Assembly (NCBI GenBank): GCA_945871105.1 | Contig: CAMBUO010000001.1 | Coordinates: 59,120 to 123,119 of the forward strand | Source of the DNA: an uncultured Clostridia bacterium | GTDB taxonomy: Bacteria > Bacillota_I > Bacilli_A > RF39 > UBA660 | DNA: 64,000 bases | Reading direction: 5' to 3' | In this document: positions 52,932 through 57,587 of the stretch, piece after piece | Layout: every line of letters starts with the position of its first letter | Position numbering within the stretch: the stretch's first letter is position 1 | Translations under genes and position numbers: made by a program | The notes under the pieces: generated by a model | What the model was told of the DNA's origin: nothing | What the model saw: only the letters and a program-made list of their open reading frames with translations | The model's database searches: none

Positions 52932-53372
52932 TTATAAAGATAAATCTTGTTCTTGAAATATTTCTTTAAAAACTTCTTTAATATCTTGATAATTATCTAA
53001 ATCTTTTAAAGTATTATCATACTCTTTAATTTTATTTAAAGTTTCACTATTTTTAACATAATCAGATCTAATATAAGTATATATTCCCATATTTTTATAC
53101 ATTTCTTGGGTTTTTAAAGCTATATCATAATTAGAAGTAATTCCTAAGTAAACATAGTATTTATCATCATTTTCCACGATTTTATAATTATCTAAACTAG
53201 AACTATTTTTTAAAGCTGCTTCATTTGAGGTGTAAACTCCGTACTGAATATAATAAATATTACCTGTTTCATTTAAATATTCTTTACCTTTATAATTTTT
53301 AAAAATAATTTGCCCGAATATTAAACCAATTAAACTACCAATTAAAATAACAATAATAATACTTTTTTTCAT
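52932..53372 (-). CDS. SPOR-domain protein (secreted or membrane-anchored)
   Basis: Signal anchor plus YYIQYGVYTSNEAALKNSSSL…YYVYLGITSNYDIALKTQEMYKNMGIYTYIR, a SPOR-like beta-alpha-beta-beta pattern. Confidence 0.45.
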   Translation of the reverse strand: MKKSIIIVILIGSLIGLIFGQIIFKNYKGKEYLNETGNIYYIQYGVYTSNEAALKNSSSLDNYKIVENDDKYYVYLGITSNYDIALKTQEMYKNMGIYTYIRSDYVKNSETLNKIKEYDNTLKDLDNYQDIKEVFKEIFQEQDLSL

Positions 53373-53483: not shown

Positions 53484-54116
53484 TTAAGCACATATAAAAT
53501 CAATAATAACTGTCGTAGTTCTTACTTCTCCTCCAACTAAATAATTTATTTTATAAGTTATCTGATCATTGTATCTAGTTCCTGCAAAAGATCCATATAT
53601 AACTAAAGTGAATTGCATATTTAAAGTAGCTGTATCAGTTGATCCTAAAGTAGTTTTATCAATTGATCCTGAGACATTACTTAATAAATTTCCATTAGAA
53701 GTATAACTACTTACAACTTCGCCATTGGTCCAGGTTTCATTACTAGAATTTTTAATCGTAAAGTTTAAATTAAAACTTTCGGTCGTTGGATTAAAAGATT
53801 GACCAAATCTATAAGTTTTGGTTATTTGCATTCTATAAGTACTAGTTGCAACATCAAATGATTCTTCTACATTTTGAAATCTACTTTGAGCACTAGAAGA
53901 AATATTATTCCCGGTTAAATAATCGGATTGGAAAGTTGTTGAAAATTGGGTACCTTCTGTGGTTTCAACCGGTTCCGTTGGTAAAACGCCTTCCGGCCAA
54001 ACATAGCCATCAATACTAGCAACTCCAGTTATTTGTAAATTAGAAGATAAATAAGCATAAGAAATACCTAGACTAATAATAAAAATTAAGTAAGCAAGAC
54101 TAACTAAAGAAAACAT
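53484..54116 (-). CDS. Secreted Ser/Thr-rich protein with SipW-cognate-type signal peptide (third putative fibre or accessory subunit)
   Basis: …ISLGISYAYLSSNLQITG N-terminus. Start taken at the internal ATG. Distal gene of the operon. Confidence 0.4.
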   Translation of the reverse strand: MFSLVSLAYLIFIISLGISYAYLSSNLQITGVASIDGYVWPEGVLPTEPVETTEGTQFSTTFQSDYLTGNNISSSAQSRFQNVEESFDVATSTYRMQITKTYRFGQSFNPTTESFNLNFTIKNSSNETWTNGEVVSSYTSNGNLLSNVSGSIDKTTLGSTDTATLNMQFTLVIYGSFAGTRYNDQITYKINYLVGGEVRTTTVIIDFICA

Positions 54117-54117
54117 T

Positions 54118-54606
54118 TTAAACTTTTTGGTTGGCTTTAATGTAGGCATCAAAATTCACATCCTTTAAGGCAGAAGTACTATTCTCATTCCAAGTAACAG
54201 TAATAGTTCCAGTTTTAGTAGTTCCAGCTAGTAAATCTCCACTAATATCACTACAAACAAAGGTAACATCCGAATCACTTTCCGAAGTTACCACTAAATT
54301 ATCTAAAGTTGCATCAATTGTTCCATTATTAGTAATAACATAAGTTATAGTATCACTTTCTCCTGGTAAAGCTAATTTAACCGAAAATGCTAAACTAATT
54401 CCATCATCTGAAATATTAACACTTTCTAATTCCGTCATATTCGTAATAGTAGCACTTTGAAATCGAATATCAAAGGTACCCGTTAAATTAACTATTCCAG
54501 TAACATATAAAGTTGAACTAAAATAAGCATAAGCTGTTCCTATAATAAGTAAAAAAGTAATAATCCAAATAACCATCATTATTCTTTTATAAATATTCTT
54601 TTTCAT
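54118..54606 (-). CDS. TasA/camelysin (peptidase M73) family secreted protein
   Basis: IIGTAYAYFSSTLYVTGIVNLTGTFDIRF matches the SipW-cognate signal and mature N-terminus of TasA/CalY (GGTFAYFSD…AGTLDL). It is paralogous to 56803-57336. Confidence 0.6.
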   Translation of the reverse strand: MKKNIYKRIMMVIWIITFLLIIGTAYAYFSSTLYVTGIVNLTGTFDIRFQSATITNMTELESVNISDDGISLAFSVKLALPGESDTITYVITNNGTIDATLDNLVVTSESDSDVTFVCSDISGDLLAGTTKTGTITVTWNENSTSALKDVNFDAYIKANQKV

Positions 54607-55622
54607 CGAGATTTCTCCAATTTAATTTCATATTTATAAAGATATTTATCTAAAATAACATAAAACAAAGCACTTTTTTTATTATCATAATATAAAATAG
54701 TTGTTAAATTATTATTAGCTAAAGTTAATAATTCTTTAAATTCTTTAATAATAATAACTTTATAATTTTTCTCAATTATTTTATCATGAATATTAACTAT
54801 ATAATCATCGTAGACTTTTATAATTTTTTTAATCTCTTTTTCTTCTTTACTTAGTTTAGATTTAAAAATTAAACGCATTAGAAGAATACCGAAAATAATT
54901 AATATACTTATTCCTAAACCTAAACCTATTAAATAAAAATAATTAATTTTTAAATCATCACTATAAAAATTTTTTAAAGTTTGATCATTATTAGTAATTT
55001 GAATACTATAAACTTCTTGTAATAAAGTAACATTTACATCTTGTAAATAAGTATCAATCATATTATTATTTTGATCATAAAGATCTACTTGTAAATAAAC
55101 TTTTAAATTACCAATTAAAGGAATTTTTAAATCTTGTTGTAAATCTTTTAAAATATTATTATATTCTTGAATATTTATCTTAGCTTTTTTATTTAATTGA
55201 ATTAAAGCTTGATAATCATTTGTTTCTTCCTCTAGTAAAACAAATTTTTTATTATAAATTTCATCACTTGCATTAGTTGATCTTTTATAATCACCAGTTA
55301 CATTAGCAACAATAGAATATTTTAATTTAATAGGTTTATTAGTACCTGTATAAACATAATAAAAATCAAATAGAATATCATCAGTATATTTCATAATATA
55401 ACTACTACTAGATCCAAATTCTTCTTTCGTAATAAAATCATTTTCTAACATATTAACTTGATAAGTTACTTTACTTATTTCTGAATAAGAACTTTCGTAT
55501 GCATTATATTTTCTATTTTCTAAATTAACATGTTTGAATATTAAAACAAAAGCAAAATATAGGAAAAACATATCAACAATAAATAAAAATAAAGATATTA
55601 TTTTTTTACTATTTGATTTCAT
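54603..55622 (-). CDS. Bitopic membrane protein of unknown function embedded in the sipW/tasA operon
   Basis: N-terminal TM, an extracytoplasmic domain of about 200 aa, a second TM and a charged C-terminal tail. It is translationally coupled on both sides. Confidence 0.35.
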   Translation of the reverse strand: MKSNSKKIISLFLFIVDMFFLYFAFVLIFKHVNLENRKYNAYESSYSEISKVTYQVNMLENDFITKEEFGSSSSYIMKYTDDILFDFYYVYTGTNKPIKLKYSIVANVTGDYKRSTNASDEIYNKKFVLLEEETNDYQALIQLNKKAKINIQEYNNILKDLQQDLKIPLIGNLKVYLQVDLYDQNNNMIDTYLQDVNVTLLQEVYSIQITNNDQTLKNFYSDDLKINYFYLIGLGLGISILIIFGILLMRLIFKSKLSKEEKEIKKIIKVYDDYIVNIHDKIIEKNYKVIIIKEFKELLTLANNNLTTILYYDNKKSALFYVILDKYLYKYEIKLEKSR

Positions 55623-55633
55623 TTTCTCAACTC

Positions 55634-56761
55634 CTAAAATTTTTCTGATAACCAGACTGTTGGATATCCTAAGTATTTAATGGTAAAAAGAGACTTTCCT
55701 ATAACCATATTTTCACTTATTTCTAATAAATCAACATCATTATTATTATCTCCTTTAGTAGTATAATAATGAATATTATTTTCTTCACGAACATTAACAA
55801 CGCGATGGACAAAAATAGTATTATTTAGTCCATAAAATTGAATAATATCGCCTACTTGATAAATTTGTTTTTTCTTATCAATTATTTCTAAATCACCTCT
55901 TGCAAAAGTTGGATTCATACTATTACTTGCAATTGCAACAGGATATATTCTAAATATTCCACAGGCAAAAAGAATAAAAAATGTCATAACACCAAGACCT
56001 AGATAATCAAAAATTGGTCTCGTTACTTTAATTTTTTTAACTTCTTTTTTAGCTAGTAAATCCATACTTTCAGTCAAAAAATAAGCTGTAAGTGGAACAC
56101 CAGTTTTAAGTAAAACTGGAATAATCCATTGAGGATTAGGTAAAACTTTCGATACTAATTGATAAATAGCAGGAAGTAACATGTAAATAATTCCTGGTAA
56201 TAAATTTCCTTTTATATATGTATATGATAAATATAATCCTATAACAAAATTAGGTACTATTTGAATATAAAACATTTCTAAAAAAGAACTAAATGTTTTA
56301 AATGCAGAAATTGCTATATTAGACATAGCAAGAGATAAGATAATACTTAAAATAATAGTATAAGAGAATCTTTTTTCTTTGTCTAGATAATTAATTAATC
56401 GATAACGAATAAATTCGATTGCTATAATATTAGGTAAATAATATAATATGTTAAAAAAAATGTGTGATCCTTGCATAACTAAAGGATTATAAGCAAATCC
56501 AAAGATAATTCCTGATAAAATATATAAAATTAAATAAAGAATACTTGCCATAATCGTTACTTGATTCACATATTTTTTCATTCTTTTAATTTGTATTTTT
56601 TTCTCTGTAAATAGATAAATTAAAACAGCTAAGGTCATAAAAAGAAATGGTTTTAAGCAAAAATAGAAACTTTCTCCTATTAAAAAGCCCAAAATATTAG
56701 TAACAATTAATACAAAAAAAAGGCCTAAGAATAAAGTTATGACTTTTTTATTTTTATTCAT
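55634..56761 (-). CDS. sipW: SipW-type (ER/archaeal-type) signal peptidase I fused to an N-terminal ~230-aa polytopic membrane domain
   Basis: The C-terminal about 140 aa carry SNSMNPTF (the S26B catalytic Ser box, compare SGSMEP), GD…, FVHRVV (catalytic His) and TKGDNN. The N-terminal half has six or seven predicted TM helices. Confidence 0.65.
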   Translation of the reverse strand: MNKNKKVITLFLGLFFVLIVTNILGFLIGESFYFCLKPFLFMTLAVLIYLFTEKKIQIKRMKKYVNQVTIMASILYLILYILSGIIFGFAYNPLVMQGSHIFFNILYYLPNIIAIEFIRYRLINYLDKEKRFSYTIILSIILSLAMSNIAISAFKTFSSFLEMFYIQIVPNFVIGLYLSYTYIKGNLLPGIIYMLLPAIYQLVSKVLPNPQWIIPVLLKTGVPLTAYFLTESMDLLAKKEVKKIKVTRPIFDYLGLGVMTFFILFACGIFRIYPVAIASNSMNPTFARGDLEIIDKKKQIYQVGDIIQFYGLNNTIFVHRVVNVREENNIHYYTTKGDNNNDVDLLEISENMVIGKSLFTIKYLGYPTVWLSEKF

Positions 56762-56765
56762 ATAT

Positions 56766-56799
56766 GGTAATTACGAGGAAAAAAATCCTCGTAATTACC
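56766..56799 (-). promoter_or_regulatory. Intercistronic stem-loop (13-bp perfect inverted repeat) between the tasA-like gene and the sipW fusion
   Basis: GGTAATTACGAGG-aaaaaaat-CCTCGTAATTACC, unusually GC-rich for this genome. No T-run follows on the transcribed strand. Confidence 0.5.
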
Positions 56800-56802
56800 T
56801 TT

Positions 56803-57336
56803 CTATTGTGCTTGATTAGCATTAATTGTTACAGTAAAATATCTAGTTTTATTTACAGGTGCACTATTTGTATCATTCCATTTAACCGTTATACTTCCAG
56901 TTGCTGTTTCATCTTTATTTAATGTTGTTGGACTAACAGGACCGGCATTAATTGTAAAATCAGTATCTGAACATTCTACAACTGTAGCTTTACCAGAATC
57001 AGAATAACAAGTAACACTTGGTGTTGATAAAGTAGCACCAATTGTTCCTAAATTGCTAATAGTGTAACTAATAACACTTTGACTTCCTGGTTCTTGTAAA
57101 TCAGTTGAAACATCAAAGCTTAAAACACCTTCGCTAGCAATCGTTGGAACAGTTGTCGTTGCTTTTGTATCAGTTTTACTAGCAGCCGTGAATTTAACAT
57201 TAAAATCACCAGATAAAGTTGCTGTTCCATTAATCGTTAAAATAGAACTAAAAGCAGCAAAGCTTACTCCAACCGCTAATATTCCGATAATTGCACCCAT
57301 CATTATACTCTTTCCATTTGCACTTTTCATTTTCAT
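56803..57336 (-). CDS. TasA/camelysin (peptidase M73) family secreted protein, first gene of the operon
   Basis: …AVGVSFAAFSSILTINGTATLSGDFNVKF. It is collinear with 54118-54606 throughout. Strong RBS AAGGAGGAT. Confidence 0.6.
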   Translation of the reverse strand: MKMKSANGKSIMMGAIIGILAVGVSFAAFSSILTINGTATLSGDFNVKFTAASKTDTKATTTVPTIASEGVLSFDVSTDLQEPGSQSVISYTISNLGTIGATLSTPSVTCYSDSGKATVVECSDTDFTINAGPVSPTTLNKDETATGSITVKWNDTNSAPVNKTRYFTVTINANQAQ

Positions 57337-57587
57337 ATCCTCCTTATCTATTTACAATAAGAAATTATACAGTTTATTGAGCTTAAAGTCAATAAAATTC
57401 ATAATATTATTTTATATATGTAAACTATATCCCTCCTTTAAGTTTATTATATAGCTTTTAGTATGTTGTATTTTGTCGATTTATTAAAGAAAATAATAAT
57501 TCCTTAAATTTTATATTAAATTGTTTTCTATTTATAATAAAAAGTAATTCTAGAAATTGCATCTAAAATTACTTATAATTTTATTTT

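Follow-up and report, generated by a model that had tools for sequence, protein, structure and literature searches.

A probable AbpX-type fibre operon whose signal peptidase is fused to an eight-helix membrane domain

The window (the whole stretch of DNA analysed here, 64,000 nucleotides from an uncultured Clostridia bacterium) contains a minus-strand, co-directional set of five genes (57336-53484) that encodes three TasA-superfamily proteins, a 375-aa signal peptidase and a DUF5305 protein. We consider it probable that this locus is an AbpX-type (TasA-superfamily) extracellular fibre module with a dedicated, built-in peptidase holoenzyme. The gene content, the catalytic residues and the subunit profiles support the core of the preliminary description of this DNA, namely a sipW/tasA-type secreted-fibre operon. 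The fused-peptidase architecture is already known from a preprint, in which one sentence credits the AbpX-linked SPase I with ten TM helices and an accessory protein of the DUF5305 family (bioRxiv 10.64898/2026.01.04.697558, January 2026), and it is widespread in bacteria and archaea. Our scans quantify that one sentence (about 1700 clusters at 50% identity, with near-obligatory fusion and DUF5305 synteny) and define five near-invariant residues in a domain without a Pfam/NCBIfam family or a solved fold, which makes it a tractable target. Fibres of the TasA superfamily are increasingly recognised as a foundation of biofilm matrices across domains, while the processing of their subunits and their hand-over for polymerisation are poorly understood; the peptidase offers a way to learn what a signal peptidase gains from a membrane domain. 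The locus also places an AbpX-type module with a polytopic peptidase in a low-GC chromosome, its closest relatives being gut/rumen MAGs.

The preliminary description listed five co-directional, mostly overlapping genes. The genes are indeed found at the coordinates given for them (Table 1), but they overlap at only two of the four junctions (by 4 nt and 35 nt) and are separated by 41 nt and 11 nt at the remaining two. Gene calls on two other, independent assemblies report the same five genes with lengths of 175, 375, 339, 162 and 221 aa. The start of the first gene is likely to be at 57330, with a putative Shine-Dalgarno sequence AGGAGG 8 nt upstream, and that of the third secreted protein likewise more plausibly at 54149. 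The candidate promoter, 28 nt upstream of the first gene, is the best sigma-70-like match within the 5-kb region. The stem-loop between the genes for subunit 1 and the peptidase (dG -23.1 kcal/mol, z -8.0) was equalled by none of 200 shuffles, and of 71 related loci, 37 have a structure at least as strong as -12 kcal/mol in this spacer; it is probably an intra-operon attenuator or an mRNA-stabilising hairpin, which may set the subunit:peptidase ratio. Neither the operon nor its immediate neighbourhood showed a sortase gene or a gene for an LPXTG or SLH anchor, and c-di-GMP genes were likewise not seen next to it. The host DNA is Bacillota-like with ~24% GC, and its best genome match is an Erysipelotrichaceae MAG (61% identity).

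Table 1. Coordinates of the predicted features of the fibre locus in the window
Feature	Position	Strand	Remarks
Candidate operon promoter, TTGACT-17-TATAAT	57364..57392	-	sigma-70-like consensus match alone, 11/12
ORF 1, AbpX/TasA-like fibre subunit 1 (candidate major subunit)	56803..57336	-	177 aa, probably 175 aa from ATG 57330; family HMM E 1.4e-49
Perfect 14-bp stem-loop	56766..56799	-	in 41-nt spacer, subunit-1 stop codon to peptidase ATG
ORF 2, signal peptidase	55634..56761	-	375 aa
Polytopic N-domain of peptidase, residues 1-248	56018..56761	-	eight TM helices, predicted cytoplasmic N-terminus
Anchor TM helix (249-266) and Sec11/archaeal-type SPase I catalytic domain (about 270-375)	55634..56017	-	TIGR02228, SEC11A/C alignment
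ORF 3, DUF5305 protein	54603..55622	-	339 aa; PF17231, E 4.5e-13
ORF 4, AbpX/TasA-like subunit 2 (candidate minor subunit)	54118..54606	-	162 aa; family HMM E 9.5e-50
ORF 5, third, more divergent TasA-like secreted protein (candidate minor or tip subunit)	53484..54152	-	222 aa or 221 aa; family HMM E 1.5e-6

The C-terminal part of the peptidase (residues 274-373) matches TIGR02228 with 80.5 bits (cutoff 51.85), human SEC11A/C match the peptidase profile (E about 1e-22) with S/H/D in register, and the top Foldseek match of the catalytic domain is 7p2q_A (E 9e-5). The earlier name "SipW" is thus retained only in the sense of an archaeal/ER-type SPase I, as the SipW equivalog model NF046067 gives 60.1 bits, below its cutoff of 190. 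Sec11-type peptidases use a Ser/His pair, not Ser/Lys, together with two essential Asp residues (yeast Sec11). The motifs quoted previously for the peptidase (SNSMNPTF, FVHRVV, TKGDNN) are all present, and the profile alignment proposed as a check of the Ser/His dyad brings S/H/D/D into line with SEC11A/C; we accordingly assign S281 and H319 as the predicted catalytic pair, with D338 and D344 as the predicted essential Asp residues, all four being present in 241/241 full-length relatives. A K/R-rich loop comes before the anchor helix, and the helices upstream of it, even in number, fit the positive-inside rule; in the topology model it runs N-in directly before the catalytic Ser, so that the catalytic domain is predicted to lie outside the cell. 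The C-terminus forms a 9-residue helix (366-374), without a full-length C-terminal TM helix.

The N-terminal domain had been described as about 230 residues with six or seven TM helices. It is polytopic as claimed, but comprises eight helices in residues 1-248 (2-28, 30-51, 62-87, 99-125, 128-146, 157-184, 187-203 and 213-239), followed by the anchor helix. AF2 models of the peptidase are confident (pLDDT 86.6 and 90.1; N-domain pLDDT 90, pTM 0.87), and the predicted cytoplasmic loops contain 5, 3 and 5 K/R residues, with 0-1 per outer loop. In the 241 relatives, bacterial and archaeal, conservation is 97% or higher at each of G84, N104, E116, R119 and P208. The conserved outer-face loops GFxxNP (84-93) and PxxPN (205-209) share their side of the membrane with the catalytic domain, and the buried E116/R119 pair (E-x-x-R, TM4) sits towards the cytoplasmic leaflet. 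DCA on the 241 sequences was dominated by gap artefacts.

The hmmscan analysis of 24 N-domain members (E up to 10) identified no consistent family in Pfam or NCBIfam, and Foldseek reported no fold match among solved structures (best E 0.39, TM 0.30 or less); no His, Cys, Ser or Asp of the N-domain reaches the 85% conservation threshold. The three identities suggested earlier (CPBP/Abi, rhomboid and exosortase) consequently receive no support within the sensitivity of hmmscan and Foldseek. For CPBP/Abi, PF02517 was matched by none of the 24 N-domains (E up to 10), there is no His at 85% conservation and no Foldseek match to a solved CPBP structure, and of the motifs EExxxR, FxxxH and HxxxN/D the N-domain has a single E-x-x-R alone. 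For rhomboids, which are marked by a Ser/His dyad in TM4/TM6 and a GlpG-like fold, there is no match to PF01694, no Ser/His at 85% conservation and no Foldseek match to rhomboid structures. For exosortase/archaeosortase, with its Cys/Arg/His triad, the 24 members match neither TIGR04178 nor PF09721, and no Cys/His is conserved at 85%; we know of no solved exosortase structure.

The fusion of the peptidase to the polytopic domain, a central claim of the preliminary description, is kept in relatives (259 homologues, 80 loci). The full-length peptidase homologues are almost all 370-415 aa long, with 24-62% identity. The N-domain profile yielded 1714 matches, each a cluster representative (50% identity clusters), and 125 of the best 150 have the fused length (about 360-400 aa). 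The order pilin(s), long SPase, DUF5305 was found in nearly all of the 80 genomes fetched, among them Clostridia, Bacilli, 'Tenericutes', Saccharibacteria (CPR) and two archaea; the proposed search for the same fusion elsewhere hence finds it in both domains. There is next to no chance that the fusion is an artefact, i.e. a mis-assembly or the loss of a stop codon between a gene for a polytopic protein and sipW. A few short N-domain matches exist (200-320 aa), most of those inspected stopping abruptly inside the domain like contig-end fragments, and three others (P0176, P0199, P0252) ending in the cytoplasmic linker, which by sequence alone might be either fragments or genuinely short; at one locus (L048) the peptidase gene is split into ORFs of 142 aa and 187 aa. 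We nonetheless count none of these as support for an artefact. The identical locus with the same 375-aa ORF recurs in independent assemblies, which argues against it, as do the 259 full-length homologues and the fused form shared by 80 genomes, which represent several phyla and include two archaea. On the strength of these sequence comparisons we regard the fusion as genuine and the artefact as refuted.

The DUF5305 protein corresponds to the "bitopic membrane protein" of the preliminary description; it has two predicted TM segments (about 5-34 and 224-258) and can now be named as a member of the DUF5305 family (PF17231). In nearly all 80 loci the long SPase is followed downstream by an ORF that the DUF5305 profile recognises, and at an archaeal locus (L057) the N-domain, the S26 domain and DUF5305 are joined in one chain. 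DUF5305 has been proposed as a signal-peptidase accessory subunit of the AbpX-linked SPase I (bioRxiv 10.64898/2026.01.04.697558). Comparison of the DUF5305 profile with solved structures revealed no sequence relative, SPC22/23 included.

The three secreted proteins (Ser+Thr 27-31%) carry signal ends of the kind announced previously (AYAYFSS / FAAFSS), one per protein: VSFAAFSS, AYAYFSS and SYAYLSS. A regular expression derived from these three ([GSA][YFIL][AS][AYLMSG][FWLY][STAN], first 60 residues) matches exactly the three secreted proteins among all window ORFs of at least 90 aa. Subunit 1 is predicted to be cleaved at VSFA↓AFSS to give a 150-aa mature protein (pI 4.4) and matches the SipW-type signal model TIGR04088 weakly; subunit 2 is predicted to be cleaved at AYA↓YFSS to give a 135-aa mature protein (pI 4.05), with a weak camelysin N-terminal match and AbpX at E 2.6 in a single-sequence search. 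For the third protein (S+T 27%) the predicted cleavage is SYA↓YLSS; many loci have an equivalent gene after DUF5305, with a product of about 200-220 aa or of 590-845 aa. A mixed subunit profile identified AbpX (PDB 9sj2_C) with E 4.2e-12, and a bacteria-only profile matched AbpX 9sj2 better (E 9.4e-6) than TasA 8aur (E 0.64). These profile matches place the fibre proteins in the AbpX clade of the TasA superfamily and not in TasA/camelysin proper, which refines the label "TasA/camelysin-like". In AbpX the donor strand is amphipathic and N-terminal, mature position 2 is aromatic, and the acidic residue at mature position 4 serves Ca2+-mediated strand complementation (bioRxiv 10.64898/2026.01.04.697558). 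With the register of mature position 2 set by the subunit alignment to AbpX W2, the aromatic residue is found in subunits 1 and 2 (A-F-S-S, Y-F-S-S), and the third protein has L. The acidic residue at position 4 is absent, with Ser in all three window proteins; this position is variable across bacterial relatives. The mature proteins have pI 4.05-4.40 and 8.7-12.6% D+E (AbpX reference: pI about 4, about 15% Asp+Glu).

We propose that the three pre-subunits would be exported by Sec, each with a basic n-region, a hydrophobic core and the conserved end G/S-Y/F-A↓x-F/L-S-S-x-L-x-I/V-x-G, and would be cut after the near-invariant Ala by the locus's own Sec11-like Ser/His peptidase. The new N-terminus could act as an amphipathic donor strand that enters the jelly-roll of the next subunit, so that the fibre polymerises. 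The peptidase would be a built-in holoenzyme, with the eight-helix domain before the anchor helix and DUF5305 encoded alongside. The N-domain would be dispensable for the cleavage chemistry, because canonical SipW processes TasA without such a domain. Tentatively, the N-domain and DUF5305 may create a docking site within the membrane at which these signal peptides are selected and their cleavage site is offered to Ser281, comparable in function to what non-catalytic subunits do in the eukaryotic signal peptidase complex. Somewhat doubtful is the broader proposal that the N-domain, the Sec11-like domain and DUF5305 constitute a prokaryotic, substrate-dedicated holoenzyme, shared by Bacteria, CPR and Archaea, whose unclassified fold selects signal peptides or couples cleavage to polymerisation; if true, the eukaryotic SPC accessory subunits would have in it a mechanistic counterpart and perhaps even an evolutionary relative.

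The N-domain might instead be a platform for fibre assembly or anchoring, which couples cleavage to polymerisation by holding the latest-cleaved or base subunit at the membrane and passing its donor strand to the fibre. The immediate adjacency of the cleavage site to the donor strand would fit such a role, and so would the specific occurrence of the N-domain with these fibre loci, the apparent lack of a sortase, LPXTG or SLH anchor gene in the operon, and the presence of S. pyogenes SipA (4n31), needed for pilus polymerisation, among the structural neighbours of the catalytic domain. We consider it unlikely, as recombinant AbpX polymerises in vitro without accessory proteins (bioRxiv 10.64898/2026.01.04.697558), and the N-domain has few conserved residues, part of them buried in the inner leaflet, which do not obviously make up a surface for binding subunits. 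Quite improbable is an enzymatic or transport activity of the N-domain itself, for instance as a second intramembrane protease clearing the signal peptide, or as a lipid/glycan transferase or flippase modifying the Ser/Thr-rich subunits. Five residues with at least 97% conservation and a buried E-x-x-R in TM4 are typical of active or binding sites, and the Ser+Thr content of the subunits would suit a modification; against this, no His, Cys, Ser or Asp in the N-domain attains the 85% conservation that would point to a protease site, and neither hmmscan nor Foldseek pointed to a consistent family or a similar solved fold.

The system closest to this putative fibre module with its fused peptidase is represented by the AbpX loci of Pyrodictium abyssi, Zestosphaera tikiterensis and bacterial homologues (PMC12518558, Nat Commun 2025; PDB 9sj2, 9rhp), which share with the window TasA-superfamily subunits with an N-terminal donor strand, a TIGR02228-type SPase I, a DUF5305 gene and minor/tip subunits; the Zestosphaera locus was recovered in our set (L080) with the same gene order. 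The window differs in having Ser where AbpX has an acidic residue (mature position 4), a D+E content of 9-13% versus about 15%, a peptidase without the full-length C-terminal TM helix, and the absence of adjoining anchor, sortase and c-di-GMP genes. The tapA-sipW-tasA operon of Bacillus subtilis likewise has an ER/archaeal-type Ser/His peptidase beside fibre subunits, donor-strand-exchange subunits and a 'SipW-dependent' signal peptide ending A↓x-F-x. However, its SipW (about 190 aa) has only an anchor helix and a C-terminal helix, with no eight-helix domain; the DUF5305 partner is absent there, as is a TapA homologue in the window. In the haloarchaeal Tat-fimbriae, an S26 peptidase and a DUF5305 protein (TafD and TafG) also adjoin TasA-superfamily pilins, and TafD is genetically required for Tafi pilin processing and fibre formation (PMC11821415, PMC12337348); TafD has four TM helices and an extra domain C-terminal to the catalytic domain, lacks the N-terminal eight-helix domain, and acts on substrates that take the Tat pathway. 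The eukaryotic signal peptidase complex (SEC11A/C, SPC22/23, SPC25, SPC12; PDB 7p2p, 7p2q) has a homologous catalytic domain and resembles the window in its single-anchor catalytic subunit amid extra TM helices and a TM-plus-beta-sandwich accessory protein. Neither the N-domain nor the DUF5305 profile gave a sequence or Foldseek match to chains of 7p2p/7p2q other than SEC11, and the analogy is architectural only, because the DUF5305 profile has no match to SPC22/23. In the window, unlike in the eukaryotic complex, the extra helices are fused in cis and the peptidase appears to be dedicated to few substrates instead of being general.

The long peptidase of the fibre operon (375 aa) comprises an N-terminal membrane domain (residues 1-248, hereafter the N-domain) and a C-terminal third (about 270-375), which is an archaeal/ER-type signal peptidase I. 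It scores 80.5 bits against TIGR02228 (cutoff 51.85) and falls below the SipW equivalog cutoff (60 bits vs 190). The family profile aligned to human SEC11A and SEC11C with an E-value of about 1e-22, while a Foldseek search with the model of the full peptidase reported matches to the catalytic domain only, with SEC11C (7p2q_A) as the sole significant match to a solved structure. Because the SxSM, HRV and GDNN motifs are in register with SEC11A/C and S281, H319, D338 and D344 are each 100% conserved across 241 full-length relatives, the Ser/His dyad (S281 and H319), whose absence would have spoken against the preliminary description, is intact.

Models of the N-domain were of high confidence, whether it was predicted as part of the whole peptidase (pLDDT 86.6, pTM 0.74) or alone (pLDDT 90.1, pTM 0.87). 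Instead of the six or seven transmembrane helices originally counted before the catalytic domain, the model contains eight predicted ones (2-28, 30-51, 62-87, 99-125, 128-146, 157-184, 187-203, 213-239), followed by the usual peptidase anchor helix, predicted at 249-266; two of the outer loops contain short predicted β-strands (89-91, 206-208). Lys and Arg are concentrated in loops 51-62, 125-131 and 239-249 (5, 3 and 5, respectively, vs 0-1 in the other loops), a distribution that indicates an N-terminus inside the cell and a catalytic domain outside it. No internal duplication (TM1-4 vs TM5-8) was detectable (hhalign probability 2.5%).

The union of the two domains, which separate genes in relatives would have called into question, is genuine. 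A word-indexed protein search with the peptidase retrieved 259 homologues, nearly all of 370-415 aa (query coverage 82-100%, identity 24-62%). A profile of the N-domain only, searched against 1.84 billion cluster representatives, gave 1714 matches with E-values of 1e-3 or lower, 465 of them at 1e-30 or lower, and 125 of the 150 best matches have the fused length (359-402 aa). Most of the short matches inspected stop abruptly within the domain, as contig-end fragments do; three stop in the cytoplasmic linker and are not classifiable. An assembly artefact is excluded by the fused homologues, the syntenic loci, the N-domain profile matches and the identical locus in other assemblies. In one profile match (P0223, 812 aa), some 500 residues come after the N-domain and the beginning of the peptidase domain, and their motifs, judged by eye, suggest a metallophosphatase or 5'-nucleotidase; this is a fusion to another partner or else a chimeric gene model. 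Three related loci (L011, L045, L070) encode, a few kb away from the long peptidase, a second Sec11/SipW-like peptidase of canonical length (185-199 aa), thus the long form is not simply a replacement of the short form.

A genome scan with an 11-sequence alignment revealed at least 542 related stretches, of which 80 loci were fetched and assigned to taxa by record title: about 40 from Clostridia, about 18 from Bacilli and Erysipelotrichaceae, 8 from 'Tenericutes'/Mycoplasmatota, 2 from Saccharibacteria and two from Archaea (a Desulfurococcales MAG and Zestosphaera tikiterensis NZ3). Nine more of the 80, all with the full module, come from MAGs labelled Muribaculaceae or Paludibacteraceae (Bacteroidota; L022, L033, L037, L040, L041, L051, L066, L067, L074), which could reflect mis-binning, mislabelling or horizontal transfer; the remaining bacterial carriers are all Bacillota-like, Mycoplasmatota or Saccharibacteria. 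According to iterated HMMs seeded by the five window proteins, nearly all loci share one gene order: TasA-like gene(s), the long peptidase, DUF5305 and often further TasA-like genes (160-850 aa). The N-domain, the S26 catalytic domain and DUF5305 (PF17231, residues 572-775) are united in one 779-aa protein (L057:5671-8010) of the Desulfurococcales MAG. The three domains are tightly coupled in evolution.

In the window, an ORF listing recovered all five co-directional genes of the preliminary description. They had been called mostly overlapping, which holds for two of the four junctions (4 and 35 nt), whereas the other two are gaps of 41 and 11 nt.

Features of the fibre operon in the window
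Feature	Position	Strand	Remarks
Best promoter-like site of the region	57392-57364	minus	TTGACT-17-TATAAT
Subunit 1 ORF	57336-56803	minus	177 aa, ORF listing
Perfect 14-bp stem-loop	56766-56799	minus	fills the spacer from the subunit-1 stop codon to the peptidase ATG
Peptidase ORF	56761-55634	minus	375 aa, ORF listing
DUF5305 ORF	55622-54603	minus	339 aa, ORF listing
Subunit 2 ORF	54606-54118	minus	162 aa, ORF listing
Third TasA-like ORF	54152-53484	minus	222 aa, ORF listing

Independent gene calls in two other public assemblies with an identical peptidase give the same order (175, 375, 339, 162 and 221 aa), with pyrophosphatase and LysRS genes at one end of the operon and RadC at the other. 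In the window LysRS likewise lies upstream, and downstream follow a small weak-SPOR protein, RadC, MreC, MreD and a U32 peptidase; the surroundings are those of housekeeping genes in the chromosome of a walled bacterium with a GC content of about 24%. The small protein (146 aa, 52932-53372, minus strand), located between the fibre operon and radC-mreC-mreD, has a transmembrane segment at its N-terminus and matches the SPOR domain weakly, below the cutoff (E 0.0012, 19.6 bits vs 21), and it lies outside the conserved module of other genomes. Nearly all ORFs of at least 180 aa in the window (1-64000) are encoded by the minus strand, and every 2-kb bin has a negative GC skew, which fits a long gene stretch co-oriented with replication. 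HMMs built from relatives detected no additional gene for a subunit, the peptidase or DUF5305 anywhere in the 64 kb, and Rfam and tRNA scans of the same 64 kb revealed no Rfam family at gathering score and no tRNA gene.

The stem-loop between subunit 1 and the peptidase (dG -23.1 kcal/mol, z -8) has a counterpart of -12 kcal/mol or stronger at the same place in 37 of 71 related loci. Such structures are compatible with different expression levels of the major subunit and of the processing genes. No U-tail follows the window hairpin on the sense strand, and the peptidase gene has no obvious Shine-Dalgarno sequence.

Single-sequence searches with the secreted subunits were weak, AbpX appearing in the PDB only at E 2.6. 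A 36-member subunit profile identified the cryo-EM structure of AbpX from Pyrodictium abyssi (9sj2_C) with an E-value of 4.2e-12, vs only 0.004 for TasA (8aur). AbpX remained the top match (9.4e-6 vs 0.64 for TasA) of a reduced profile that left out the archaeal and four other rows (Saccharibacteria, Nanosyncoccus, Mycoplasmatota, two Clostridia). At the level of sequence profiles, the window subunits are thereby shown to fall into the AbpX clade. The mature residue W2 of AbpX aligned onto the conserved aromatic of the subunit family, therefore cleavage is predicted after the near-invariant Ala (VSFA|AFSS, AYA|YFSS, SYA|YLSS; cleavage positions across the family taken from alignment A5), and the donor strand would thus be directly exposed. 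Among all window ORFs of at least 90 aa, a pattern derived from these signal ends recovers the three secreted proteins and no other (chance expectation not computed). With pI values of 4.05-4.40 the mature subunits are acidic, and they have a high content of Ser and Thr. With Ser at mature position 4, instead of Asp or Glu, and with 9-13% D+E, AbpX-style calcium-mediated strand complementation is uncertain in them.

AbpX was named, and its adjacent dedicated SPase I noted, in the cannulae paper (Nat Commun 2025, PMC12518558). A preprint (bioRxiv 10.64898/2026.01.04.697558) gives the AbpX-linked SPase I ten transmembrane helices; for DUF5305 it suggests a role as accessory subunit of the peptidase, with which it is fused in some cases, and it takes the Zestosphaera locus as the example. 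Candidate cultivable carriers are Clostridium amylolyticum and Natronincola peptidivorans, which the preprint names, and Mycoplasmatota strain zrk6 (CP074575.1, locus L053). In the Tafi papers (PMC11821415, PMC12337348), genetics showed that pilin processing requires the cognate peptidase TafD, and TafG (DUF5305) was proposed to assist TafD. The AbpX and Tafi papers devote at most one sentence to the extra helices of the peptidase and assign no function to them. The polytopic-peptidase architecture is already on record and the window locus is a further example; the preliminary finding was real and its interpretation right in outline. The remaining interest lies in a membrane domain that is strongly conserved and unclassified. 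CPBP (PF02517), rhomboid (PF01694) and exosortase (PF09721), the relationships initially suggested for the N-terminal part, were rejected and matched 0 of 24 diverse N-domains at E up to 10, and these share no other Pfam family in the same scan; NCBIfam gave no N-domain match, and Foldseek of the N-domain model vs the PDB reported nothing better than E 0.39 (TM 0.30).

The make-up of the module, the integrity of the active site and the topology are established, and the role of the N-domain can be discussed against them. An independent enzymatic or transport activity appears improbable; among the His, Cys, Ser and Asp residues of the N-domain, none reaches the 85% conservation threshold. The most conserved residues are G84, N104, E116, R119 and P208 (97-99% each), followed by P170, Y180, Y193 and P205 (87-92%). 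In the model, E116 and R119 are placed in TM4 towards the inner leaflet, while G84, F89, N92-P93, N104 and P205-N209 would lie at the outer face, beside the position required of the catalytic domain. The window peptidase has Lys at residue 205 (about 56147-56149), a position of the conserved outer-loop motif P-x-x-P-N that is Pro in 92% of relatives; the four relatives of 56-62% identity in alignment A1 are non-Pro there too. Mean-field DCA (241 sequences, Neff 181), applied to look for contacts of the N-domain with the anchor or the catalytic domain, yielded gap/indel artefacts as top pairs and was discarded. An assembly or anchoring platform is somewhat less improbable than an independent activity, albeit still unlikely. 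We tentatively favor an intramembrane site formed by the N-domain and DUF5305, at which the fibre signal peptide would be docked and presented within the membrane, a role that may be analogous to that of the non-catalytic SPC subunits.
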